Below, in pieces: positions 1,760 to 45,779 of a DNA stretch of 45,779 nucleotides. Numbering within the stretch: position 1 is the stretch's first letter; every line of letters begins with the position of its first letter. Source of the DNA: Enterobacter phage ST22; the sequence record OQ957557.1. The stretch is one strand, 5' to 3'. Made by a program: the position numbers and the translations under genes. The notes under the pieces are model-generated. The model did no database searches and was not told the DNA's origin. It worked only from the letters and a program-made list of their open reading frames with translations.

Positions 1760-1791
1760 CGTCTGATCCCTGATTTGTTGAATAGGGGTTG

Positions 1792-1824
1792 ACGATAACC
1801 CATTCAAAGCACACCGTCAACCAT
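1792..1824 (-). promoter_or_regulatory. Sigma70-like promoter, GGTTGACG family: -35 TTGACG (RC of 1815-1820), 17-nt spacer, -10 TATCGT (RC of 1792-1797).
   Basis: CGTCAACCAT motif at 1815-1824. A second GGTTGACG copy lies on the plus strand at 1788-1795. Confidence 0.4.
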
Positions 1825-1829
1825 ACCGA

Positions 1830-2795
1830 TTAGAAAGCAACGTGGGCACCAACCGCACCGCCAACCGTGTGCCCGTCAGTGGTCAGATCCAGAGTTACCG
1901 CAGTGCTTTCCGTCGCCTGGTACTGAGCACCAACCGCCAGAGCCGCAGAGTTATCCCATGAGCCAATCGCTACAGCTGCGCCGTTGCCGTGGTCATAGTG
2001 CAGACCTGCCGCAGCTATGGCTGCGCTGGTGGCGCGGGCCAGCTCTTTGTGCGTCACGGTGTCGCGTGGGGTGAAGTCACGCCCAGCCGCGCCAGTGTCG
2101 CCCTTGTCGCCTTTCTCGCCTTTCTCGCCTTTGGCACCGGCCTGGCCATCCTTGCCATCCTTGCCAGCTGCGCCAGCTTTGCCATCGCGGCCCGCCTTGC
2201 CATCCTTGCCGTTAACGCCGTCACGGCCTGCCTTGCCAGCTGCGCCATCCTTCCCATTCAGTCCGTTATGCCCATCAACGCCATTAACGCCATCACGGCC
2301 CGCTGCACCGTCATGCCCGTTAGCGCCAGCAGTGCCGTTTTTGCCATCCACACCATCATGCCCGTTAACGCCATCTTTCCCATCCTTCCCGTTTAAACCA
2401 TCTTTGCCATCATGCACCTGGATGGCGTGCTGGATAGCTGCATCCAGTTTGGCCTGCTGGCGCTGAGCGTCTGTAACGTTGCTATCCAGATGGCTGCTGC
2501 GGTCAATCCCAGCAGGGGCATCTGCGTGCGGTGTAACCGGCTGCTGGTGGTTGCCATCCAGGTGCGGGGTGGTCACGCCGCCAGCGTGCAGATCCTGCCG
2601 CCAGTTAGTGCCTGCCGCCTTGTCAGCGCTGTCAAACTCAGCCTGCTGCTGAGCATCAAAGCCTGAGTAAGTGCGCGCAGCGTCCTGATAGCTCATGTTT
2701 TGGATAGTGTTATACAGGTCAACGCCTGCGCCAGCATGAGCCACGCCAGTGATGGACGCCAGAGCAATGGTTACAGCAACGATAGTTTTACGCAT
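1830..2795 (-). CDS. Secreted collagen-like trimeric-autotransporter (YadA-type) adhesin-like protein. It has a Sec signal peptide, a long G-X-Y collagen repeat tract and a C-terminal 4-strand beta-barrel anchor ending in F.
   Basis: N-terminus MRKTIVAVTIALASITGVAHA. About 35 GXY triplets (GKDGKDGVNGHDG...). C-terminus ...AVAIGSWDNSAALAVGAQYQATESTAVTLDLTTDGHTVGGAVGAHVAF, with alternating hydrophobics and a terminal aromatic residue. Confidence 0.6.
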   Translation of the reverse strand: MRKTIVAVTIALASITGVAHAGAGVDLYNTIQNMSYQDAARTYSGFDAQQQAEFDSADKAAGTNWRQDLHAGGVTTPHLDGNHQQPVTPHADAPAGIDRSSHLDSNVTDAQRQQAKLDAAIQHAIQVHDGKDGLNGKDGKDGVNGHDGVDGKNGTAGANGHDGAAGRDGVNGVDGHNGLNGKDGAAGKAGRDGVNGKDGKAGRDGKAGAAGKDGKDGQAGAKGEKGEKGDKGDTGAAGRDFTPRDTVTHKELARATSAAIAAAGLHYDHGNGAAVAIGSWDNSAALAVGAQYQATESTAVTLDLTTDGHTVGGAVGAHVAF

Positions 2796-2851
2796 GATAA
2801 TTACCTTTGAAATTTTTGAATGGGGCAGGCCATCCCGCCCCGATGTGATGC

Positions 2852-2884
2852 ATGTTACGCCTGAGCCTTAAAAGCGTCAACCAT
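2852..2884 (-). promoter_or_regulatory. Sigma70-like promoter, GGTTGACG family: -35 TTGACG (RC of 2875-2880), 17-nt spacer, -10 TAACAT (RC of 2852-2857). It is followed by the GGGGC..GCCCC hairpin at 2822-2841 in the leader of the adhesin gene.
   Basis: AAAATGGTTGACGC read on the minus strand, with an AT-rich upstream tract. The hairpin lies between the promoter and the RBS of the 1830..2795 gene. Confidence 0.45.
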
Positions 2885-3778
2885 TTTATTTGCCTCAGCC
2901 GGATCAGTTGAGAGATACGCCTTGATGGCGCGATTCATCGCCAGCGTTATCACATGAGGTTTTTGCGCCTCAACAAGCTGCTGCGCCAGATCCTGCTGCA
3001 ATTCTACAGCCGCGTCCAAATGGGCGTTAGCCTCATTCAGCTGCTGCGCCAGCTCTTGCGCCGCCTTGTCAGCACCAACCGCAACCGCACGAGCCTGCGC
3101 CAGCGCATCAATCAACCCCATGACAAAGCACGGCGTAATGTCACGGTTAATCACCACCCTGGAGTGACGCAGATCTGCGCTGTGAGTGAAATCCGCCTCC
3201 ATGATGTTACGCAATGATGAGCTACCAAAACCGGCCTTATACATCGCCTCCAGGTGCGGGTAGGCCTCGCCAGATCTGGTGGCCTTTTGCCCCATGGCAT
3301 ATTCATGAGAGTTTTGCCCGTTACCCATGCGCGGATAACTTATCCCAGGGAATAATGGCGATTTATCCAGCGCCTCAGCGTCATTGATGGCCTTATCCAT
3401 CGCTGAGCCAAATGCCGCCTTAACCGCAGCCTCACCCTGCTCACAATCCTCAACTTTGACGGTTTGCGGGTATGAGACACGGGAGGCAGCGCGCTCAATA
3501 TCCTCATCCAGCCCTTTGCTGGTGAGCACCGGCAGATCGTGGCATCTCGCCATCGCATTCTGGATTTTAGGCACGTTGCCAGTAATGGCTGCCTCCACCG
3601 CAGTGGCCTGCATACTCGCCAGCGTAATGGTGCCCTCTTTGATGCGTGCGCCGGTGATGGTGCGCGGGGCAATAGCCTGCTCAACCGCCTCAACGCGCTT
3701 ATCAACGCCAACCACGGCCTTGTGGATGTTTTGCAGCTCCATGATGGCCTGCGAAATCAAACGGGTGATCTTGCTCAC
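2855..3778 (-). CDS. Hypothetical protein (307 aa), Ala/Gln-rich coiled-coil-like C-terminus.
   Basis: Long ORF tightly packed in the leftward cluster. I recognise no domain. Confidence 0.55.
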   Translation of the reverse strand: MSKITRLISQAIMELQNIHKAVVGVDKRVEAVEQAIAPRTITGARIKEGTITLASMQATAVEAAITGNVPKIQNAMARCHDLPVLTSKGLDEDIERAASRVSYPQTVKVEDCEQGEAAVKAAFGSAMDKAINDAEALDKSPLFPGISYPRMGNGQNSHEYAMGQKATRSGEAYPHLEAMYKAGFGSSSLRNIMEADFTHSADLRHSRVVINRDITPCFVMGLIDALAQARAVAVGADKAAQELAQQLNEANAHLDAAVELQQDLAQQLVEAQKPHVITLAMNRAIKAYLSTDPAEANKMVDAFKAQA

Positions 3779-4085
3779 TTTGTCTCTCCTCTCTGGGATT
3801 TAAAACCGTAAATCAACATGGTGCCCATCAGCTTGACCGCTGGGGATGGCGTGCCGGTCTGCTGGTATGTATCATCACCAGCCACCAATCCCTGCACCGT
3901 AAACTGCACATCTCGCAGCGTGCGCCCTTCCAGTGCCATCTCCCGCCCAGCTCTGCACATCGCCTCTGCGCCTGAGCGAGTGGATTGATTCATGATACTG
4001 CGCACCACCACGCTGCACGGGTTGGCCTGAGCCATCGCCGCAGCTGGCAGCATCAGGGCCACCAGCAACAAAATGCGTTTATTCA
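3775..4085 (-). CDS. Small secreted/periplasmic protein (~103 aa) with a Sec signal peptide (GTG start, VNKRILLLVALMLPAAAMA-QA).
   Basis: Hydrophobic N-terminus with an AMA-Q cleavage-like site and two Cys. The start is inferred from the GTG preceding the signal peptide. Confidence 0.45.
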
Positions 4086-4318
4086 CCGGCAGGCTCCTCT
4101 GGCTGCTCATCAGCCTCCTCACGGATGTTTTCTGCGATGGTCACAGTGCCTACTGCATCGTAAAAAGCCCATTGGCCCTTTAGCTTGATATCCACCAGCC
4201 CCTGCGATGGCGTAGGGTGTACATCCTCCACCAGGACAAGCTCACCATCAATCAGCATGGTCATGCCGTCCTCAACGAAAGCCACCTTAATCAGGCGCTC
4301 ATCATATTTGATAGCCAT
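4079..4318 (-). CDS. Hypothetical small acidic protein (~79 aa).
   Basis: ORF with GGAG 6 nt upstream of the ATG at 4316-4318. The acidic C-terminus is EEADEQPEEPAGE. Confidence 0.4.
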   Translation of the reverse strand: MAIKYDERLIKVAFVEDGMTMLIDGELVLVEDVHPTPSQGLVDIKLKGQWAFYDAVGTVTIAENIREEADEQPEEPAGE

Positions 4319-4582: not shown

Positions 4583-4621
4583 TTATGAATCCTCTTGAGT
4601 GGTTGTCGTTTCAATGAGGTC

Positions 4622-4654
4622 ATTATGGGGCCACCAGCCCAGAGCGTCAACCAT
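4622..4654 (-). promoter_or_regulatory. Sigma70-like promoter, GGTTGACG family: -35 TTGACG (RC of 4645-4650), 17-nt spacer, -10 CATAAT (RC of 4622-4627). It drives the leftward cluster.
   Basis: TAATAAATGGTTGACGC-N17-CATAAT with an AT-rich UP-like region. The AACGACAACC leader motif lies about 12 nt downstream of the -10. Confidence 0.55.
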
Positions 4655-4746
4655 TTATTAGTTTTTATGTACAAATATTGACCATTATTAGCGTAAGTCC
4701 ATGACGCATAACGATTTATTGAATTATTAGATTTCAGAAGTATAAA

Positions 4747-4773
4747 GGGGGTATGGGGGGAGGGGGAGAGGGG
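4747..4773 (+). repeat. Canonical G-quadruplex-forming motif GGGGGTATGGGGGGAGGGGGAGAGGG, with an extra GGGG at 4783-4786.
   Basis: Four G-tracts of >=3 with loops of 1-4 nt, read directly on the plus strand. Confidence 0.5.
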
Positions 4774-4785
4774 TGCCCCTAAGGG

Positions 4786-4860
4786 GTAGTAGTAGTAAGT
4801 AAGTAAGTAAGTATATATATATATAATAAATAAATAATATATATAATTACTATATAGAAT
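4786..4860. repeat. Composite microsatellite tract: (GTA)3-4, (GTAA)4, (TA)7, (AATA)3, (TA)4-5.
   Basis: tagtagtagtaagtaagtaagtaagtatatatatatataataaataaataatatatataattactatatag. Confidence 0.65.
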
Positions 4861-4869
4861 AGACACTTA

Positions 4870-4970
4870 GGGCAACCGTCAACCGTTTCCAAACCTAATA
4901 ATCTAATAACAGTTTGACACTATCCACCAGCTCAGCGCAAAATGGCAACCTGTTTTGACAACCAACCGGT
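4870..4970. promoter_or_regulatory. Iteron-like CAACC repeats (GCAACC GTCAACC .. CCAAACC .. GGCAACC .. GACAACCAACC) with TTGACA -35-like elements. Candidate origin of replication and early rightward promoter region, immediately upstream of the primase.
   Basis: Five to six CAACC copies within ~100 bp, next to an AT-rich low-complexity tract and the prim-pol gene. Confidence 0.35.
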
Positions 4971-4979
4971 AACGCACCG

Positions 4980-7673
4980 ATGAAAGAGAATCGTTTAACG
5001 CCTCACTGGAGGCTTTACAAGGATGCAGGCTTTTCCATCATCCCAATCATCCCCATGGAGCAAAACGGGAGGGGGGATTGGGTTTGTACGTGTAACAGCG
5101 CCCATTGTCAGGCGGCTGGTAAGCACCCAACGATCAGACGTTGGGAAAACGTTGTGCATACGCATAGCGATGCGGCAACGCACCGCCTGATTAATTCCAA
5201 ATGCCAGAGCTTTGGGGTTTCCGCTGATGGGTGGCTGATTGTGGACGTGGACCCGCGCAATGGTGGCGGGGTAGGTCTGGAAAAGCTGGAGGAGGCACTG
5301 GATTGCTATCTTGAGGATATCGCCGGATTGACCGTTGAAACGGGAGGCGGTGGCCTGCATTACTATTTCAAAGCCCCTGAGGGCGTGAAGATGGTGACGG
5401 GCAAAAAGGAGTTTCCTGGGGTGGACTTTGTGCATGGCCTGCATTACGTGGTTGGGGCCGGTAGCGCGCATAAATCAGGTGGCACTTACACCATCAAAAA
5501 GGGTAGCCCGGACAAGATTGATTATCCCCCTAAAGAGCTGGTGGACCTGATTGAGAGGCAGCCCTGGGTGGCTGGCACTGGTGGGGATGGTGAAGCTGAG
5601 CCGGAGCTGGTGGAGATGGCCCTTGATGCTATTCCAAATGATGATGTGGACTATGATGAATGGCTGCGCATTGGGATGGCTCTGCGTCACTGGGATGATG
5701 ATGCCGGTTATGCCCTGTTTGTTAAGTGGTCGGAGCAGTCCAGCAAGTTTGATCCGGCTGACCTTGATCGCCGCTGGGCATCATTTGGGGATGTGGGCGC
5801 GGTTAACGTGGGCACCATCTTTCAGCGGGCCATGCTGAATGGCTGGGAGCGTCCACGCGATGCAGTTTGTGGTGAGATTGATGAGCAGGGCAAGATCATC
5901 CCGTTCCGCGCTACTGAGGCCCAACTGGATGCCATGCGTAAGATGCTGAGCACTCCACGGGGTAGCAAGGTAATCGTGGTGCATGAGGATGAGGTGATTG
6001 AGTCAGACGCCGCACCCCAGCGCCAGGCTGCGCCTGCCGCCGAAAACCCACAACCCCAAAACCAAAAACCCATGGGCACCGCAGCAAGCTGCCGCACCGG
6101 TGGCAAACCCTTCTGGCAGAAAAGCGATGGCACCACCCCAACCGGCGAGATGCGCCACGCGGGTGTGCTGCCGGTGGCCCCTCCTGCCCCTACCATCAAG
6201 GCCGCGCCGAAAGCCTCAGCTGCGGCTATGCAGTACAAGATCAAGCTCCCTGGCTGGATTGGAACAATTTACGATCACATGGCCCGCACCGCGTGGAGCG
6301 TGCAGCCTGGTGCCATCGCCGCCGCAGCCATTCAGGCCGTTGCCGTCGCTGGGCGCGGGGTGAAGGGCTACAACCGCGCTAACACGAGCCTCATCACGAT
6401 GGTGATCGCCGCGTCAGCGTCCGGCAAAGAGCACCCTCAGCGCGTTTTCCACACCCTGATGCAGAGCGTTGGAATTGACGTTCACGCGGAGATGCGCAGT
6501 GACAAGGATTTAGTTTACGGGCTGGTGGATGGCGACGGTGCAGCGTGCTACCTGGTGGATGAGGCCCATACGCTCTTTGGGGCTGCCGGTGCCGGTGATG
6601 CCGTCAAGCGCGTGGACAAGTCCAGCCTCCAGCTGGGCGGGATGCTGCTGAAAGTGGGCACCGCCACCAAATTGCCACTGCCGCGTAACTGGATGGCTGA
6701 CATTGAGGCGCGTGAGGGCGCTGAGATTGAGAAGCTGCGCAAAAAACAGGCCCAGATTGAGGAGGGCAAAGGCGTATGGAAGCAGCGCCCCACTGAGCAG
6801 GCTAACCTGGAATATGCGCGCCTTGAGGCTCTGATCGGTTTCCGTGAGAAGCGCCTCAAAAACCTCAAAGCCAACGGGCTGGATAACGTCAAATTCAACA
6901 TGCTGTGTAGCTCCACACCTGCCATGTTCTCTGAATACATTGACGAAACGGCGATTAATAACGGGCTGGCGGGCCGTGCGCTGATCTTTGACTGCGGGCA
7001 CAAGGCAGATTATCCATGCTTTGAAGCGCCGCCACTGGATAGCCAGCGCCGCGCTGAGATTGATGATTATATTGCGCGCCTGCGGGAAGCCGGTGAGCTG
7101 GGGCTGGAGGTTGAGGCCAGCAGCGGGGCGGTGGCGTTATTCCGTCAGTTCCATGACAAGATGAGTCAGCCAGCTTATGCAGAAGATCCGCAAACGGGGC
7201 CGGTAAACCGCCGCAGCTCTGAGCGCGTTTCAAGCCTTGCCAGCATCCTGGCGATGGGAAACCAGACACATGAGGGCGTTTTCCTGATCACTGAGGAGAT
7301 CGCGCAAACCGCCATTGATCTGGTGGAGATGCACCTGGCAACGTGCCGCTTTATGCTTAGTCAGACCATGGCAGAGGATAGCCAGATTGACAGCAAGGCC
7401 GCCATCCAGCAGCGGGTGCTGCATATCATGCAGAAAACCACCAGCGATGAGCCTATGGCTTACAGCGTGCTGCGTCAGCGTTTCCTGGCTGCCAAAAAGT
7501 GGAAAACACTTATCAAACGGTTGACGGATGAGGGGCCAAAGTCCGATAATGACCGTCTGGGCCAGGAGATCATTGCCATGCTGCGGCTGGGCTTGATTGA
7601 TGGCGCGGTGAATAAAGCGTGCTGGATCACGCCGAAAGGCAGAGAGAGCGGCGGCTATGGTAAATCTTTATAA
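4980..7673 (+). CDS. DNA primase (bifunctional primase-polymerase N-terminus + PriCT-like region + Pro/Ala-rich linker + large C-terminal DUF3987-like domain).
   Basis: N-terminus ...LIVDVDPRNGGG...GGGGLHYYFK..VDFVHG (prim-pol). 897 aa, with a low-complexity linker at about aa 330-400. Confidence 0.75.
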   Translation: MKENRLTPHWRLYKDAGFSIIPIIPMEQNGRGDWVCTCNSAHCQAAGKHPTIRRWENVVHTHSDAATHRLINSKCQSFGVSADGWLIVDVDPRNGGGVGLEKLEEALDCYLEDIAGLTVETGGGGLHYYFKAPEGVKMVTGKKEFPGVDFVHGLHYVVGAGSAHKSGGTYTIKKGSPDKIDYPPKELVDLIERQPWVAGTGGDGEAEPELVEMALDAIPNDDVDYDEWLRIGMALRHWDDDAGYALFVKWSEQSSKFDPADLDRRWASFGDVGAVNVGTIFQRAMLNGWERPRDAVCGEIDEQGKIIPFRATEAQLDAMRKMLSTPRGSKVIVVHEDEVIESDAAPQRQAAPAAENPQPQNQKPMGTAASCRTGGKPFWQKSDGTTPTGEMRHAGVLPVAPPAPTIKAAPKASAAAMQYKIKLPGWIGTIYDHMARTAWSVQPGAIAAAAIQAVAVAGRGVKGYNRANTSLITMVIAASASGKEHPQRVFHTLMQSVGIDVHAEMRSDKDLVYGLVDGDGAACYLVDEAHTLFGAAGAGDAVKRVDKSSLQLGGMLLKVGTATKLPLPRNWMADIEAREGAEIEKLRKKQAQIEEGKGVWKQRPTEQANLEYARLEALIGFREKRLKNLKANGLDNVKFNMLCSSTPAMFSEYIDETAINNGLAGRALIFDCGHKADYPCFEAPPLDSQRRAEIDDYIARLREAGELGLEVEASSGAVALFRQFHDKMSQPAYAEDPQTGPVNRRSSERVSSLASILAMGNQTHEGVFLITEEIAQTAIDLVEMHLATCRFMLSQTMAEDSQIDSKAAIQQRVLHIMQKTTSDEPMAYSVLRQRFLAAKKWKTLIKRLTDEGPKSDNDRLGQEIIAMLRLGLIDGAVNKACWITPKGRESGGYGKSL

Positions 7674-8061
7674 CTGGGGCCGCGTGGCCCCGTCATGGGA
7701 ACCGCGTAAGCCAGCGGTTGCCCGTGACCCAAATGACCCAATGCCGGACGGGCTGACGGTCACGGCTGAAATCAGGTACGTCCGTTTCCAGAAGGATGGC
7801 GAGAAGATTGATCGCGTGGTTGTGTTCCGCATAACTGCCGGTGAATTTAACAACTGTGAAGCCAATTACCGCATCAAGTGGAACAGGCCGGACAAGCTCA
7901 GGCCGCTCACGGATGTGGTCATGCCGGATAGCAGGGAGCGGGGCCGCATGGTGGCCTCCCGTGATCCAAAGGTGTGGAGTGAGATGTTAGCGGGGCGCTG
8001 CGCCACAATCGTGATTGGCGTCTATATGGGCCACAATTACATTAAAGAAATCAAGAGGTAA
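7657..8061 (+). CDS. Hypothetical protein (134 aa).
   Basis: ORF overlapping the primase stop. Confidence 0.45.
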   Translation: MVNLYNWGRVAPSWEPRKPAVARDPNDPMPDGLTVTAEIRYVRFQKDGEKIDRVVVFRITAGEFNNCEANYRIKWNRPDKLRPLTDVVMPDSRERGRMVASRDPKVWSEMLAGRCATIVIGVYMGHNYIKEIKR

Positions 8062-8066
8062 GCATT

Positions 8067-8912
8067 ATGTTAGATGGAATGAGTAAACCAGGATTAACTG
8101 CGCCGGTTATCGTGATCGCCGGTCCCCCAGGGGCTGGTAAGTCAACGCTGGGCGCATTGTTCCCCATGCCGCTGTTTATTCAAGCTGAGGAGCTGAGTAG
8201 CGTTTTTGATGATTGGGCTGAGGAGGATAAGCCTCACACCTTGCCGATTCTGCCAGCGCATGATCTGGCGCTCAAAAAATCGCCGTATGACACGATCATG
8301 AAACAACTTGATCAGATTGGGCGGGCCAATACCGCAGAGCTGCGGCAGCAGGTGCGCACCCTCGTTATTGACTCCACCAGCGTGCTCAACGCTCTGCTGG
8401 AAGTGGAGATCGTGGAGAAGGACGGCTCTGACTCCATGGGTAACGCCTGCGGTGGTTTCCACAAGGCTTATGAGGTGGCTGCCGGTATGCACACCAAAAT
8501 CATTGAGCGGGCTAAGCGGGTATGCCGCAAGCACAACATGGCGCTCATTTTCCTGGGGCACACCATTGCCCGCAAGATGCGCAACCGCCCAGATGCTGAG
8601 GAGTACAGCGTATGGACTCTGGATATGGGTGAGAAAGCCGCGCAGGTTTACTACCGGCTGAGTGATGCCGTGCTATTCCTGACGGTGGAGGAGTTTGTGC
8701 GCGGTGGGGAAACCAGTAAGAAGGGGATCACCACCAAAAGCGGCAAAATCATCAGCACGGGCCAGCGCATCATTGTGACGTGCCCAGAAGGTAAGCAGGG
8801 ATTCAGCAATGCCAAAAACCGCATGAATCTGGACGCGCTTATCAAAGTGCCAGCTGACAGCAACCCATTGCTGGATCTGATCCCGTTTTACGTCGCCAAT
8901 CCTCTGGGGTGA
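8067..8912 (+). CDS. RecA-like/AAA_24 (Sak4-like) ATPase, putative recombination protein.
   Basis: Walker A VIVIAGPPGAGKST near the N-terminus. RBS AAGAGG upstream. Confidence 0.6.
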   Translation: MLDGMSKPGLTAPVIVIAGPPGAGKSTLGALFPMPLFIQAEELSSVFDDWAEEDKPHTLPILPAHDLALKKSPYDTIMKQLDQIGRANTAELRQQVRTLVIDSTSVLNALLEVEIVEKDGSDSMGNACGGFHKAYEVAAGMHTKIIERAKRVCRKHNMALIFLGHTIARKMRNRPDAEEYSVWTLDMGEKAAQVYYRLSDAVLFLTVEEFVRGGETSKKGITTKSGKIISTGQRIIVTCPEGKQGFSNAKNRMNLDALIKVPADSNPLLDLIPFYVANPLG

Positions 8913-8931
8913 AAATAATTTAAAATAATGG

Positions 8932-8968
8932 TTGACGGTTGAGGTGATTGGGGTAATAATCACCTCAA
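8932..8968 (+). promoter_or_regulatory. Sigma70-like promoter, GGTTGACG family: -35 TTGACG (8932-8937), 17-nt spacer, -10 AATAAT (8955-8960). It is overlapped by the 11-bp inverted repeat TTGAGGTGATT-N8-AATCACCTCAA (8939-8949/8958-8968).
   Basis: ATAATGGTTGACGG with an AT-rich upstream tract. The perfect inverted repeat covers the spacer/-10/TSS, which is an operator-like position. Confidence 0.55.
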
Positions 8969-22210: not shown

Positions 22211-22220
22211 CTGATATGAT

Positions 22221-22256
22221 GCCCCAGATTAATCTCAATTCTCTGGGGCATTTTTG
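22221..22256 (+). terminator. GCCCCAGA-N13-TCTGGGGC hairpin followed by ATTTTTG.
   Basis: It lies between the replication-region genes and the lysis cassette. Confidence 0.5.
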
Positions 22257-22257
22257 C

Positions 22258-22566
22258 ATGGACAAGGATACTTTTATTACCAAAGCGTGGGCGTGGTTTA
22301 TTGCCGCTTGCCTCGCAGGGGCATTTATTAACGCCGGTGCGCAGAAAGATCACACGCGCAATCAGCGGATTTTCTCATTTCTGGGCGCATTTCTGGCGGC
22401 TTATTTTCTGGCCCCCGCACTCCTCCACCATTTCAACATTGTTGGCGAAAGCGAGCTTTCAGCCGCAGGCTTTGGCGTTGCTGCTGTTTGGCAATTGATC
22501 TATAACAAGGCTGTAACTATCATCAACGGCCTTAATATTCCTTTCTTTCAAGGTAAAAAAGAATGA
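22258..22566 (+). CDS. Class I-like holin (3 predicted TM, ~102 aa). An alternative upstream start at 22216 is less likely because it would include the terminator.
   Basis: Three hydrophobic segments. It lies two genes upstream of the endolysin. Confidence 0.5.
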   Translation: MDKDTFITKAWAWFIAACLAGAFINAGAQKDHTRNQRIFSFLGAFLAAYFLAPALLHHFNIVGESELSAAGFGVAAVWQLIYNKAVTIINGLNIPFFQGKKE

Positions 22567-22934
22567 TTCATTCATTTCACATCATCACGGAGGGGCCATT
22601 TTTCTGGTCTACTCCCATGGGGCTTTTTGTAGCTTTCTCCCTCGCATTCTGTTACGCGGTCAATGTCCTGCACCGTGGTATTGATGATTGTTTTTTTGAT
22701 CGTGTCTATTACTGCATCGTGGCGCTGGTGGCCTTTATGGCCTTTATCGTGGGATCAGATCCTACTCACCAGAATCCGCAAGGGATTGGTGCCACTATCC
22801 TGGTAATGTTAGCCTTGCGCGCATGGTGGCGGCTCACGGTCCGGCTCATTCGATTCTGGCGCACAAAACAGCCCCAGAGCACTTTAACCTCATTCAGTGA
22901 TAAAGGAGGCCATCATGGCACTAAAACGCGCTGA
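22563..22934 (+). CDS. Second holin-family/antiholin-like membrane protein (3 TM, 123 aa).
   Basis: Hydrophobic helices and a basic C-terminus. It overlaps the endolysin start. Confidence 0.45.
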   Translation: MIHSFHIITEGPFFWSTPMGLFVAFSLAFCYAVNVLHRGIDDCFFDRVYYCIVALVAFMAFIVGSDPTHQNPQGIGATILVMLALRAWWRLTVRLIRFWRTKQPQSTLTSFSDKGGHHGTKTR

Positions 22935-23301
22935 GAAGCTGGCAGGAGTCCATCCTCGCCTTGTATCGGTAGTAAACGCGGCGGCCCTGCTCCTGCCGTT
23001 TGATTTGTACGTTGTAGAAGGTTTGCGCACCGTGGAGCGCCAGCGTGAGCTGGTGGCAGCCAAAAAGAGCAAAACGATGAATAGCCGCCACCTTAAACAG
23101 AAAGATGGCTATGGGCACGCGGTGGACCTGTTTAACGGCAAGGATTGGAAAGAGGAGAGTTTCTTCCCCATCCACAAAGCCATGATGGAGGCCGCAAAAT
23201 TGCAGGGCGTTACGCTTACGTGGGGCGGTGACTTTAACGGTGACGGTCACAACGTGGGGCGTGATAACTGGGATTGTCCTCACTTCCAGATTGAGCTGTA
23301 A
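22916..23301 (+). CDS. Endolysin, L-alanyl-D-glutamate peptidase (peptidase M15, T5-endolysin-like).
   Basis: AAAGGAGG RBS. ...VVEGLRTVERQRELVAAKKS...GHAVDL...DNWDCPHFQ (zinc-binding H/D pattern). Confidence 0.7.
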
Positions 23302-23303
23302 CC

Positions 23304-23470
23304 ATGGATAAACTTAAAGCAGCATGGCCTTACATCCGGCGCGCATTGACCCACAAAGCTACCTATACGGCGTTGATCGCCGTTGCCGGTGTGGTTGGGT
23401 ACACCAAAGCGCCGCAGCTCGTTGACGCTATCCAGGCGGTTGTTACCGCCGTATTAGGCCCAATTCAGTG
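23304..23470 (+). CDS. Small TM protein (55 aa) ending the lysis cassette.
   Basis: MDKLKAAWPYIRRALTHKATYTALIAVAGVVGYTKAP.. Start overlaps the endolysin stop. It is below the ORF-track cutoff. Confidence 0.35.
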
Positions 23471-23480
23471 AGCCAATAAA

Positions 23481-38750: not shown

Positions 38751-39353
38751 ATGCAAACTGAGTTAATCGACGTAGCTATGAAGGCCATCGCGGCCCACGT
38801 AGCAGCCCCTTACAAGCTGCGCATTGCGGAGCTTGAGCAGCAAGTGCAGTCTGGTTTCACTCCTGAGGCTCTGGCGCAAGAGGACCGCGCTGAGCGTGCT
38901 GAGGATGAGCTGGAAATGATGCGCATCAAACTCAAAAACGAGACTGACCGCGCCAATAACGGGATGATCCCATACCAGACGCGCATTAATGATCTGGAGA
39001 AAAAACTGGATCAGGCCCGAAAAATCCAGGGTGGGATGCAGAAGAAAAACGACGCGCTGATCGCTCAGGTTAATGAGCTGGTGGCGCACGGCCCAACCGG
39101 CGCTCTGGAGGAGGAGCTGCGCAAGCATCTGGCAGCAGCCAACGCAGAGATTAAGCGCCTGGAGCAGGAAAACCGCAACCTGCGCGGTGAGCTTTCCGGC
39201 AAGCGCTTTGCCGCAAAAAGCAGCCTGCATAAAGCTGTGGTTGATTCTCAGCACGTTGAGCCTGATACGCGCCCCCAGCCACCTAAAACCGGCGTGGGCC
39301 ACGGTGGCCTGGTGCTTAACATGAACGATGCACGCGAATGGGATCACCGCTAA
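38751..39353 (+). CDS. Coiled-coil protein (200 aa), first gene of the antisense island.
   Basis: GAGAGG RBS. Heptad-rich ELEQQ../KRLEQENRNLRGEL segments. Confidence 0.55.
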   Translation: MQTELIDVAMKAIAAHVAAPYKLRIAELEQQVQSGFTPEALAQEDRAERAEDELEMMRIKLKNETDRANNGMIPYQTRINDLEKKLDQARKIQGGMQKKNDALIAQVNELVAHGPTGALEEELRKHLAAANAEIKRLEQENRNLRGELSGKRFAAKSSLHKAVVDSQHVEPDTRPQPPKTGVGHGGLVLNMNDAREWDHR

Positions 39354-39733
39354 TGAATATTGCACAGATGGCAATGAAATCACTGCGCGCCCAGGGAGGG
39401 CGCAATAAGCAGCGTGTACTGCTGCGCGTGGAAGGGGATCGGACCAATGAGCGCCTTTGGTGGACCGATGAAGATAAAGCGCTGTTTAATGAGCTGGTGG
39501 GTAAAGTCCATGTGAGCGTGCTGATGCATCGCCTGGGCCGCAGCTACGCCGCAATCATTCAGCACGCCAGTAATGTAGGCAAATCCGTGCGCGTCCTGCA
39601 TGTTTGCCGTGGCGGGCATCAGCTGGAGCAGCGCCCATCTGGAAAGTGGGTTTGCCGCAAATGCATCGCTGAGAAAGCCCGCGCTAAACGTCAGGAGGCT
39701 AAACGTGAGAAAGAAGCCAACGCCACACGATGA
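39338..39733 (+). CDS. DNA-binding protein with a GcrA/Myb-like HTH (WTDEDKALFNELVGKVHVSVLMHRLGRSYAAIIQHA) and a C-terminal zinc ribbon (C..GH..x..C..C).
   Basis: Motif-level similarity to the GcrA N-terminal domain (WTDE..L...L....S....LG..S..AVI). An alternative start at 39354 is possible. Confidence 0.45.
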   Translation: MGSPLMNIAQMAMKSLRAQGGRNKQRVLLRVEGDRTNERLWWTDEDKALFNELVGKVHVSVLMHRLGRSYAAIIQHASNVGKSVRVLHVCRGGHQLEQRPSGKWVCRKCIAEKARAKRQEAKREKEANATR

Positions 39734-40004
39734 ATTGATCGGCCTCAAATCGGCGCGCATTATCGCCGGTCTGGGGGCATCCATGAAGGGGCACGCTGAG
39801 CGCACGCGCAAGGCCATTATTGCCTCAAACCAGACCACTGGCATGGTGAAATATTTCCGCAGCATTAACGAGGCTTACCAGTGCGGCGGGTTCTCAGTTA
39901 ACATTGTACGCGCCATCTGTGATGGCAAGCGCGAACATTTTAAAGGCTGGCGTTTCCGCTACGCCACTAAACAGGAAAGGAAAGAGTATGAGCTTAGTAA
40001 TTAA
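39705..40004 (+). CDS. Stand-alone NUMOD1-like HTH DNA-binding protein (~100 aa). GTG start after an AGGAGG RBS.
   Basis: VKYFRSINEAYQCGGFSVNIVRAICDGKREHFKGWRFRYA matches the homing-endonuclease C-terminal DNA-binding motif (F.SI.EA..........I...C.GK......G..W.Y). Confidence 0.5.
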   Translation: MRKKPTPHDELIGLKSARIIAGLGASMKGHAERTRKAIIASNQTTGMVKYFRSINEAYQCGGFSVNIVRAICDGKREHFKGWRFRYATKQERKEYELSN

Positions 40005-40359
40005 AGATCCAATGATGCGCGGCGGCCTGGCCTCTGAGGCTATCCAGCAGGGCTATGAGAAAGCCACGGGCCGCATTCTGACGGTGGCAGAGGGCCGCCT
40101 GCTCACTTACCTGCGCTATTCAGCCTGCAATGGCGGCTACATTGACACGCGCCGCATGAGCAAGCCTGAGCGTCAGACCGTTGAGGATCTGTGTGCCGCT
40201 GGCCTCATGACCCGTGACGCAAACTACAAAATCGGCCTCACGCCGGTGCTGTTTGAGCAGATCAACCTGATCGAATGGGATGTGTACTGCACGCAGGCCG
40301 CTGAGGATGAAACGCAACCGGCTGAGCCGTCACTAGCTGATGGTGGCCTTGATGCGTAA
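39988..40359 (+). CDS. Hypothetical protein (123 aa).
   Basis: GGAAAGAG RBS, ATG at 39988. Confidence 0.5.
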   Translation: MSLVIKDPMMRGGLASEAIQQGYEKATGRILTVAEGRLLTYLRYSACNGGYIDTRRMSKPERQTVEDLCAAGLMTRDANYKIGLTPVLFEQINLIEWDVYCTQAAEDETQPAEPSLADGGLDA

Positions 40360-40573
40360 GGTAGATCGCCGGTTTAAGCTCCAGGACCAGATCACCAAAG
40401 TTAAGGCCGCCCTCACGGGCGTGCCTGATAGCGCTGCCCGCACTATCCTGGTGGAGGTTTTGCTGGATATCTGCGAGCGTGAGGACGTGCATTATTTCAG
40501 CAGTGGATGCGCTGATTATGATGTGCGCATTGACATGCGGCCTATTGAGGAGCGCCACCGTGACCGTAATTAG
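40340..40573 (+). CDS. Hypothetical small protein (73-77 aa).
   Basis: ORF. The start is uncertain (40340 or 40352). Confidence 0.35.
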   Translation: MVALMRKVDRRFKLQDQITKVKAALTGVPDSAARTILVEVLLDICEREDVHYFSSGCADYDVRIDMRPIEERHRDRN

Positions 40574-40838
40574 CATCAAGATGGGGATTCAGGTAACTCC
40601 GCATTACCGCCATGATCTGCCTAATACCATGCGCACAAACCTGCGCCGCACTCGCTTCTGCCGCCTGCGCGGCGTGAAGGATGAGCAAACGCTGCGCACA
40701 ATGATTAAGGCTGGAAGGATTTATCAGCACGTCCTGGAAGGTGTGGGGCTGAGGCAGGTTAAATCCGGCACGCCCACCGCATCAATCACATGGGCAATGC
40801 TGACGGGCCGCATATGGCTCGCTACCGGCAGGAAATAA
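40560..40838 (+). CDS. Hypothetical basic protein (~93 aa from the GTG after a GAGGAG RBS).
   Basis: Arg-rich. Last gene of the island, followed directly by a strong terminator. Confidence 0.4.
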   Translation: MTVISIKMGIQVTPHYRHDLPNTMRTNLRRTRFCRLRGVKDEQTLRTMIKAGRIYQHVLEGVGLRQVKSGTPTASITWAMLTGRIWLATGRK

Positions 40839-45025: not shown

Positions 45026-45779
45026 TTAGTACATGAAGCCGATATCAGGCAGAGCCTCAGGCAGAATGTCACGGATGATCGGGAACGTGTAGGCGATGTA
45101 ATAGCCGCCTGCATCGTTGGCATGGTCAAAGCCGCTTTTCTTGTCCGGCTCGCCAGTTTTCTCATCATAGATCTGATTCTGGAGACACTTAGAATACCAC
45201 GGGCAGAGTAAATCATTCACAAAATAACGGCGTTCACCTGCCGCATTGAGGAACATCGCGTTTACTGCGTTGATGCGGCTCTTGACGGCTGGGTTAGTCT
45301 GCTCATAGTGGACCATGAAGCCCGCACCCTCCAGCAGGGCAATATCAGAGGTGGATGCGCCGCTGGTCTTGCGGTTTTTGCCTGAGCTGTCAGGGTAAAC
45401 GTTGATTTGGTGGTGCCCGTTGCCGTAGCGCTCAATGATGGCCTCAATCATATCCGGCGTATCATAGCGATCCACAAACTCAGCCACTGCATGTGGCTTT
45501 CCGTCACGGATAACGTGAACGATGGCGCTCATGTGCTGGACGTTAAAGTCCATCCCGATAAACAGCGGCTCACCTGGCTGCACCTCCTCACGGGAGCGGT
45601 TGCCCGCCACATCATAGGTGTAATAGATCGTGCCTGATGCAAGGTTAGTGAACTGGCCCAGGATGTAAGCCTTGACCAGCTCAGGCGGGTAGGAAACCAG
45701 CAGGCCAGGCACGTAGTCCAGAGGCAGGTAAGGGTTGCTCAGGGTGGCAGCCTGCACCATCTTGTAACCTTTGGCCTCA
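45026..45779 (-). CDS. terL: Terminase large subunit, C-terminal nuclease part. It continues from 1..632 across the circular junction, giving a combined protein of ~462 aa.
   Basis: ...LFIGMDFNVQHMSAIVHVIRDGKPHAVAEFVD... The ORF is open to the window end and in frame with the window-start segment. Confidence 0.8.
   Translation of the reverse strand, partial: EAKGYKMVQAATLSNPYLPLDYVPGLLVSYPPELVKAYILGQFTNLASGTIYYTYDVAGNRSREEVQPGEPLFIGMDFNVQHMSAIVHVIRDGKPHAVAEFVDRYDTPDMIEAIIERYGNGHHQINVYPDSSGKNRKTSGASTSDIALLEGAGFMVHYEQTNPAVKSRINAVNAMFLNAAGERRYFVNDLLCPWYSKCLQNQIYDEKTGEPDKKSGFDHANDAGGYYIAYTFPIIRDILPEALPDIGFMY

Follow-up and report, generated by a model that had tools for sequence, protein, structure and literature searches.

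The 45,779-nucleotide sequence of Enterobacter phage ST22 (record OQ957557.1), the whole of which is the window analysed here, encodes on its minus strand at 1830..2795 a 321-amino acid protein that is very probably a short type Vc trimeric autotransporter surface protein, in which a collagen triple helix is predicted to form the stalk in place of a coiled coil. The same amino acid sequence is deposited as WKV24413.1, an ST22 "hypothetical protein." An earlier note, written from the letters of this DNA, had read the gene as encoding a secreted, collagen-like trimeric autotransporter adhesin (TAA) of the YadA type. Pfam, comparison of a family profile with the Protein Data Bank (PDB), AlphaFold and Foldseek agree with that reading, in a phage without recognizable lysogeny genes. 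The ST22 gene is a divergent new member of an already annotated class of phage genes. What is particular to it, as far as sequence and predicted structure indicate, is a divergent anchor, a head with the HLD motif and a collagen tract joined almost directly to the anchor helix.

The ATG of the open reading frame (ORF) is the first start codon past the upstream stop. By inspection, the N-terminus reads as a classical signal peptidase I signal peptide of the Sec pathway (amino acids 1-21, MRKTIVAVTIALASITGVAHA, 2733..2795 on the minus strand, as are all features of the protein). The n-region carries two basic residues (+2), the hydrophobic core of 15 residues has a mean Kyte-Doolittle hydropathy of 2.13, and AHA occupies positions -3 to -1 ahead of a glycine; the alignment shows the same N-terminal pattern in the homologues. 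The clear Sec signal peptide described in the earlier note is thus upheld. It is followed by an N-terminal passenger "head" of 108 residues (amino acids 22-129, 2409..2732), made up of a short helical region, a His/Asp-rich module TPHLDGNHQQPVTPHADAPAGIDRSSHLDSNVTDAQR and a helix leading into the collagen, and then by the predicted collagen stalk (amino acids 130-240, 2076..2408). A predicted α-helix at amino acids 243-263 (2007..2069), from the AlphaFold model built with the family alignment, would be the counterpart of the TAA pore-traversing helix. Profile and model then place the four predicted β-strands of a YadA-like anchor at amino acids 272-280, 283-293, 298-306 and 311-319 (1839..1982). 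The chain ends in ...GAHVAF with Phe321 as its terminal residue, so that the terminal Phe and the four-strand pattern proposed from the sequence are both borne out, the latter as a predicted fold with a helix ahead of the strands.

Anchor, stalk and head

By sequence profile and predicted fold, the C-terminus is an anchor of the YadA/Hia/AtaA type. An exhaustive HMMER search with the last 84 amino acids of the ST22 protein against 1.8 billion representatives recovered 20 relatives besides the ST22 protein, and all 21 matches reach the last residue. A word-indexed protein search with the anchor alone gave no match, and a profile search through the word index gave six. The Pfam family YadA_anchor (PF03895) matches the ST22 protein at amino acids 273-320 with 22.2 bits (E = 1.5e-4), and 20 of the 21 family proteins, ST22 counted in, match it at E <= 0.01. 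Among nine relatives scored singly, seven pass the cut-off, namely gp20 of Erwinia phage Y2 (30.1 bits), P0002 (27.1), P0004 (26.7), P0012 (26.2), a Serratia fonticola protein (L084, 24.2), P0020 (23.9) and P0013 (23.7), and two fall under it, P0005 (20.1) and P0015 (17.6). The anchor alignment is nearly free of gaps, with a single one-column gap, and all 13 invariant columns are kept in ST22. Searched against the PDB, the profile of the family alignment finds the YadA anchor 2lme (E = 4.1e-5) and chain 9gh4, a "cell surface protein" (E = 6.6e-5). The YadA anchor is also the best match of the single ST22 sequence in the PDB, at an insignificant E of 0.13. We accept the anchor domain because the family members and the family profile match PF03895 and 2lme.

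The AlphaFold model built with the family alignment has a predicted local distance difference test score (pLDDT) of 90-96 over the anchor and consists of one helix followed by four strands, which is the fold of a TAA protomer with its helix and four transmembrane β-strands. A C-terminus without structural likeness to TAA anchors would have spoken against the earlier claim; instead, the five best Foldseek matches in the PDB are the anchors of Hia (3emo, 2gr7 and 2gr8), AtaA (9vnj) and YadA (2lme), with a probability of 1.0, a template modelling (TM) score of 0.66-0.73 and a root-mean-square deviation (rmsd) of 2.1-2.6 Å, the next match having an E value of about 1. In the BFVD database the best match is Gp20 of Erwinia phage Y2 (TM 0.81, rmsd 0.8), followed by about 20 phage proteins described as "YadA-like anchor" or "agglutinating adhesin," many of them so named in UniProt. 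The family proteins end in F, W or Y, the C-terminal aromatic residue of the β-signal recognized by the β-barrel assembly machinery (BAM). The YadA, Hia and AtaA anchors (type Vc, PF03895) thus resemble the predicted ST22 anchor in having a helix and four β-strands per chain and a C-terminal aromatic residue; they share only about 20% identity with it, and the ST22 passenger is without Pfam-detectable TAA modules.

The stalk region consists of 37 unbroken G-X-Y triplets in which proline is absent, the X position being mostly K, A, V or R and the Y position mostly D, A or N. The collagen tract noticed from the sequence is real, although its first description, about 35 triplets at 2095-2400, needed adjusting to 37 triplets at 2408..2076. 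It matches the Pfam Collagen family (PF01391) with 67.7 bits against a cut-off of 27.2 (E = 7.7e-19), and no other tract of at least five G-X-Y triplets occurs in any frame of the ST22 genome. Fully formed, the 111 residues at 0.286 nm each would give a stalk of about 32 nm. A collagen tract is an obligate three-chain structure and fits a trimer, and collagen helices need their three chains kept in register at one end. The Scl1 and Scl2 proteins of Streptococcus and Lcl of Legionella likewise use a Pro-poor G-X-Y tract to display a globular N-terminal domain on the surface; they are attached by LPXTG/sortase or other anchoring, whereas the ST22 protein has a predicted β-barrel anchor. NCBIfam matches to proteins of this type cover the collagen tract only, at 104 bits against a cut-off of 325.

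At the DNA level, the region coding for the triplets has an imperfect 9-nucleotide periodicity, the best array being TCGCCTTTC repeated 3.9 times with 92% matches and the remaining copies being 60-76% alike. The suggestion that this DNA is a hotspot for length variation is therefore not demonstrated for the DNA itself, the repeats being imperfect, but the number of triplets does vary across the family (0, 7, 8, 10, 16, 18, 37 in ST22 and 57 in P0020). Two plus-strand ORFs, 1989-2396 and 2017-2466, overlap the gene and are a usual by-product of GCC-rich repeats.

Members of the family share a plan of signal peptide, short helical N-domain, one or more His/Asp-rich modules, a G-X-Y tract of varying length, an N-x-x-I coiled coil and the anchor; where the aligned relatives show N-x-x-I heptads, ST22 has collagen. 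The ST22 head falls outside all Pfam and PHROG families, and a word-indexed protein search with the head alone gave no match. Residues 1-116 of the ST22 protein are 40% identical to a chromosomal family member of Serratia fonticola, and from this homology we conclude that the head is a bacterial invention kept by the phage. The S. fonticola gene lies between a pyruvate kinase gene on one side and a gene for a leucine-rich repeat protein on the other, and the Citrobacter amalonaticus gene has alcohol dehydrogenase and sulfatase neighbours. Further bacterial members come from Phytobacter and a Neisseriaceae bacterium. In a scan with the narrow alignment, the bacterial family members were found in ordinary chromosomal surroundings.

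The family module TPHLD...IDRSSHLDSNVT.EQR is present in one or more copies. The pattern of the repeated module is TPHLDxxxxxxxTPHLDAPxIDRSSHLDSNVTxEQR; in ST22 the module is located at 2479-2570 (amino acids 76-106), and it also occurs in P0012, P0013, P0018 and the S. fonticola locus (L084:9101-10285). It lies outside any Pfam family and is found in one to several copies per passenger in this TAA subfamily; it may be a metal-binding or trimer-layer motif. Another family member, P0002 (L092:10001-11092, Logan contig DRR122529_0), is situated at the junction of bacterial housekeeping genes and a phage-like block with a tape measure protein (TMP_3) and an HNH gene, which suggests a prophage-edge moron copy of the same subfamily.

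Related phage and prophage genes

Genes with a YadA anchor are present in about 100 deposited phage genomes, and some of the encoded proteins have a signal peptide and a collagen stalk. Most of these phages belong to groups generally regarded as virulent. Many of the proteins are named in UniProt [quoted passage not shown] or "agglutinating adhesin." A tblastn search with the anchor from Yersinia phage P778 matched 85 phage records, including phiEco32-like Kuravirus, Erwinia phage S6 (Schitoviridae), the Pantoea phages AAM22, LIET2 and Nafs113, SKML-39 and the jumbo phages GAP32 and fHe-Yen9-04, with annotations that range over "adhesin," "YadA-like protein," "agglutinating adhesin," "tail protein" and "hypothetical." According to Switt et al. 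(2013; PMC3728262), FSL SP-058 and SP-076, which are virulent phages of Salmonella, carry yadA homologues, as does phiEco32; the authors found these genes away from the tail genes and left their function open. The view that such a gene is unexpected in a virulent phage therefore has to be given up, with about 100 genomes carrying one and such genes already described in 2013 (PMC3728262). The searchable literature yielded no experimental study of any virulent-phage YadA-like protein and nothing on ST22 itself.

The closest parallels in architecture are phiEco32 gp119 (signal peptide, 22 triplets, coiled coil, anchor), P778 ORF096 (signal peptide, 35 triplets, coiled coil, canonical YadA anchor), Erwinia phage RF1 00026 (signal peptide, 17 triplets, anchor) and P0020 (signal peptide, coiled coil, 57 triplets, anchor), all of which, like the ST22 protein, combine a signal peptide, G-X-Y repeats and a C-terminal YadA anchor and have non-structural neighbours. 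The P0020 gene, from an uncultured FelixO1-like contig, is flanked by nrdD and nrdG; the nrdD of this contig shares 73% DNA identity with that of the approximately 90-kb phage P778, where ORF096 (L097:7669-8586) occupies the same place and is labelled "tail fiber protein." The phiEco32 gene (L098:2027-2824) is labelled "tail protein," and both ORF096 and gp119 sit among nucleotide-metabolism or early genes; the "tail" labels are probably a systematic misannotation driven by the collagen repeats. P0020 and the ST22 protein are 43% identical over 235 amino acids, including the anchor and the collagen exit AAG(R/K)DF, which points to kinship of these two phage copies. In every collagen-bearing relative inspected, a coiled coil of about 30-70 residues separates collagen and anchor, whereas in ST22 residue 240 closes the last triplet and the predicted pore helix starts at 243. 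The anchors of phiEco32, P778 and RF1 are of the canonical "...AGIAGVAAMANIPQ...GVSYEW" form, the "AGIAGVAAMANIPQ...YEW" subtype that most phage copies share; the ST22 anchor instead belongs to an "LHY...H..F" subtype. The HLD-motif head also sets ST22 apart from phiEco32, P778, RF1 and P0020.

Anchors of the ST22 subfamily are encoded by 14 Erwinia Loessnervirus phages, comprising Y2 and its relatives. The gp20 protein of vB_EamM-Y2 (Chaseviridae) has a signal peptide and, in contrast to ST22, no collagen tract, a coiled-coil stalk and a different head; it and its homologues are annotated just as "gp20" or "hypothetical." Y2 and its relatives are described as virulent. An anchor-like stretch is also present in Pantoea phage SSEM1 (L091:5001-5285; MT230534 7999-8283), off-frame from the annotated gp22 (7712-8317) and without an intact ORF; this anchor remnant would be either a pseudogene or a mis-called gene.

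Phage-borne TAAs are also represented by EibA, EibC and EibD of the Escherichia coli ECOR-9 prophages, whose P-EibA/C/D records are matched by a family anchor at E values of about 1e-6. A pairwise BLASTP comparison of the ST22 protein with EibD aligns the helix and the first strands (E = 3e-6; 39% identity over 54 amino acids), and there is no similarity elsewhere. Unlike ST22, the Eib genes belong to temperate prophages and act from the lysogen, and the Eib proteins have a YadA-like head, a neck and a long coiled-coil stalk with immunoglobulin-binding sites and no collagen. With neither an Eib passenger nor a lambdoid prophage setting, and with no recognizable lysogeny genes, ST22 falls outside the Eib type.

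Proposed mechanism, role and genome setting

The secretion steps of type Vc proteins, comprising Sec export, BAM, the 12-stranded barrel and passenger extrusion, are established knowledge of TAAs. Applied to ST22, the precursor would cross the inner membrane through Sec and be cleaved after AHA. In the outer membrane of the infected Enterobacter cell, the BAM complex would then combine three C-termini into a single 12-stranded barrel, and the three passenger chains would be threaded out through the pore with their C-terminal part leading, to fold outside the cell. The three pore helices would keep the chains in register, and the collagen, beginning two residues upstream, would zip from C to N without a coiled coil. 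The product would be a fibre of about 30 nm bearing a trimeric His/Asp-rich "HLD" head at its tip. As for timing, host RNA polymerase would read the gene during infection in a leftward operon from a promoter at 4650, possibly also from the gene's own ATGGTTGACG site.

Several points weigh against reading the protein as an autotransporter of this kind. Pfam finds no canonical TAA head, neck or coiled-coil stalk domain and assigns the passenger to Collagen only; the ST22 match to YadA_anchor is 0.5 bit under the curated cut-off of 22.7; and the ST22 anchor is the most divergent of the subfamily, with a mean identity of 40% against 58% among the others. The full-length AlphaFold model from the single sequence is uninformative (pLDDT 44). 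A Pro-free tract rich in GKD and GVN leaves the stability of a triple helix at 37 °C in doubt. The trimer, the barrel, Sec cleavage, the outer-membrane location and the timing of expression are all predictions, and the role proposed below is argued by analogy. The candidate promoter matches just 4/6 positions in its -10 hexamer, and transcription of the gene could simply occur along with that of its neighbours. Nevertheless, a coiled-coil stalk and the catalogued modules are typical of TAAs without being a strict requirement, and collagen is present in phiEco32 gp119 and others as well.

As to what the fibre would do, we tentatively regard as most likely that binding by the head, shared with the homologues in Serratia and other Enterobacterales, would cause infected cells to adhere or autoaggregate, so that progeny are released near fresh hosts. 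Our second choice, which we think rather unlikely, is the same outer-membrane fibre serving exclusion, a 30-nm layer or receptor masking that blocks superinfection or the loss of progeny to debris. The outer-membrane proteins Llp of phage T5 and Cor of phages T1 and phi80 would be analogues for such a function. The operon is preceded by σ70-type promoters and adjoins an early divergent promoter region, and yadA-like genes elsewhere are located near early or nucleotide-metabolism genes, next to a dUTPase gene in Erwinia phage S6 and Pantoea phage AAM22, between nrdD and nrdG in P778 and contig L094, and after the gene for the single-stranded DNA-binding protein (SSB) in Y2. Recurrence in many unrelated lineages regarded as virulent also suggests a gain for the phage itself. 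However, the head is conserved with chromosomal homologues, which argues for binding of a kind not restricted to phages, and the literature searched gave no experimental case of a TAA in exclusion.

The two remaining explanations would deny the protein a place on the infected cell or any purpose there. A virion component such as a collagen-like fibre or whisker is the least probable of all, a very remote prospect, even though the top PHROG matches are tail-fibre families (E down to 3e-24), relatives in phiEco32, P778 and the FSL SP-076 group are labelled "tail protein" or "tail fiber protein," and phage fibres often contain collagen-like tracts, with matches at 334 IMG/VR loci. Nearly all of the PHROG and IMG/VR matches are mainly to the G-X-Y tract and its flanks, roughly amino acids 50-295, and local tblastn detects neither head nor anchor in any of the 80 IMG/VR loci retrieved. 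A cleavable signal peptide and a membrane β-barrel anchor are incompatible with cytoplasmic virion assembly, and the gene lies outside the tail module, in keeping with the placement of phage yadA genes away from tail genes by Switt et al. (PMC3728262). The ST22 protein thus has a predicted export signal, shows no homology to fibre domains outside the G-X-Y tract and is not encoded among the tail genes. A passively carried or decaying host gene, silent or without consequence for infection, is also improbable. Such genes can decay, as the SSEM1 stretch outside an intact annotated ORF illustrates, and the ST22 anchor is unusually divergent; yet ST22 retains an intact ORF, a Shine-Dalgarno sequence, the signal peptide, 37 unbroken triplets and 13/13 invariant anchor residues, its GC content at third codon positions (GC3) resembles that of the genome as a whole and speaks against a recent arrival, and the gene is conserved in 14 Erwinia Loessnervirus genomes.

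The earlier note had given the gene a dedicated promoter and a leader hairpin. The sequence AAAATGGTTGACGC is indeed present at 2886..2873 on the minus strand. A σ70-like promoter candidate (2852..2884, minus strand) consists of the ATGGTTGACG decamer at 2884..2875 with -35 TTGACG, a 17-nucleotide spacer and -10 TAACAT. The two hexamers match the σ70 consensus at 9/12 positions, and the candidate extends over the last part of the upstream gene, its stop codon included. The decamer has five exact copies in 45.8 kb, where about 0.09 would be expected from length alone, and 15 matches with one mismatch against 2.7 expected, a number reached in none of 100 shuffles. Four copies are oriented towards downstream genes and have a -10-like hexamer at a distance of 17 nucleotides, at 4650(-) with CATAAT, 8932(+), 2880(-) with TAACAT and 1820(-) with TATCGT. 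A promoter before the collagen gene is thus plausible; the site is one of a genome-wide set, not especially strong and weaker than those at 4650 and 8932, so that the site and the hairpin of the earlier claim are retained and the word "dedicated" is not. The two best candidates, 4622-4654 (-) and 8928-8960 (+), have the leader "cacctca..aaacgacaacc" in common, and in both the Shine-Dalgarno sequence is AAGAGGA. They resemble two copies of one promoter-leader unit, one at the head of the leftward operon and the other at the head of a rightward one, and they are probably the main divergent promoters; the 2880 site shares only the -35 decamer with them.

Between the promoter candidate and the Shine-Dalgarno sequence lies an 8-bp GC-rich hairpin (2822..2841, minus strand; -17.3 kcal/mol, z = -2.6) with no U-run directly after it, which would be either a leader hairpin or a weak terminator of the upstream gene. 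The Shine-Dalgarno-like AAGG itself is at 2804..2807 (minus strand), 9-12 nucleotides upstream of the ATG. Directly past the stop codon of the collagen gene, a second ATGGTTGACG promoter-like site (TTGACG-17-TATCGT, 1787..1826, minus strand) would serve the next gene and terS. It is embedded in an inverted repeat, GGTTGACG...CGTCAACC, which spans both its -35 and its -10 and could be an operator or a terminator-like hairpin.

The large terminase gene (terL) is divided between the ends of the sequence (1-600 and 45026-45760 on the minus strand, with Terminase_6C at 45026-45760), and the ST22 sequence is therefore a complete, permuted genome opened inside terL. The leftward minus-strand order starts from the divergent promoter region at about 4600-4980 and runs through three small genes, a gene for a 307-amino acid protein, the collagen/anchor gene, a small gene, terS, terL and the portal, head and tail genes, the tail module being apart from the collagen/anchor gene at 23.5-34.6 kb. 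The plus strand encodes a primase, a helicase-family protein, Sak4, SSB, RusA, methylases and a holin-holin-endolysin cassette. Neither an integrase nor a repressor was detected in the ORFs that were scanned, which agrees with the description of ST22 as apparently virulent and is not proof of it; on the same ground, prophage-moron status was rejected. Recent horizontal acquisition was likewise rejected, the GC3 of the gene being similar to that of the rest of the genome.

As a lineage ST22 stands alone: neither the phage collection nor IMG/VR, the latter scanned with terS and the 307-amino acid neighbour, yielded a close relative, and the ST22 capsid protein shares only 50% identity with that of Pantoea phage MED16. 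Megablast and tblastn searches of the phage collection with the gene, the region and the 307-amino acid upstream neighbour gave no match, nor did an exact look-up of the ST22 protein among contigs.

Two genes upstream of the collagen gene, at 3775-4122 (-), an ORF of 115 amino acids has a signal-peptide-like N-terminus (..KRILLLVALMLPAAAMA followed by QANPC..), two cysteines and no Pfam or PHROG match; its product would be a second exported protein of the same operon. The lysis cassette (22216-23471, plus strand) comprises two holin-like genes and an endolysin gene without a recognizable Rz/Rz1 spanin; downstream of the endolysin gene is an ORF of 55 amino acids (23304-23471) that includes a hydrophobic segment. 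A lysis or spanin role for the collagen/anchor gene was rejected, the gene being 20 kb from this cassette and its anchor an ordinary TAA anchor. Four plus-strand ORFs at 38751-40838 form an island inside the minus-strand structural module; one of them, 39338-39733, has a weak likeness to a D5-like transcriptional regulator, and the other three are without matches.

Meaning for virulent Enterobacterales phages

The label "hypothetical protein" of the ST22 gene can be corrected, and the mislabelling of its phage relatives as "tail protein" or "tail fiber protein" is exposed. In phage therapy and biocontrol, an adhesin-type gene in a lytic phage is an item that regulators usually want flagged. 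The near-direct junction of collagen and barrel helix would also be a minimal natural scaffold for studying collagen folding in autotransport and for the surface display of trimeric collagen-like fibres.

Why phages without lysogeny genes invest in an outer-membrane adhesin is a question that has stood since at least 2013, and the 321-amino acid ST22 protein offers a compact test case. It is possible, although we hold it to be doubtful, that virulent Enterobacterales phages have repeatedly captured short TAAs and express them to remodel the surface of the doomed cell, whether for aggregation and adhesion or as a protective coat. The groups involved in such repeated capture would be the ST22 siphovirus, Loessnervirus, Kuravirus, Schitoviridae, FelixO1-like phages and jumbo phages. 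On this view ST22 would also show that a type Vc barrel can export a collagen triple helix and nucleate it directly, without a coiled-coil adaptor. If this is true, the capture of TAAs and their expression in infection would be a general infection strategy.

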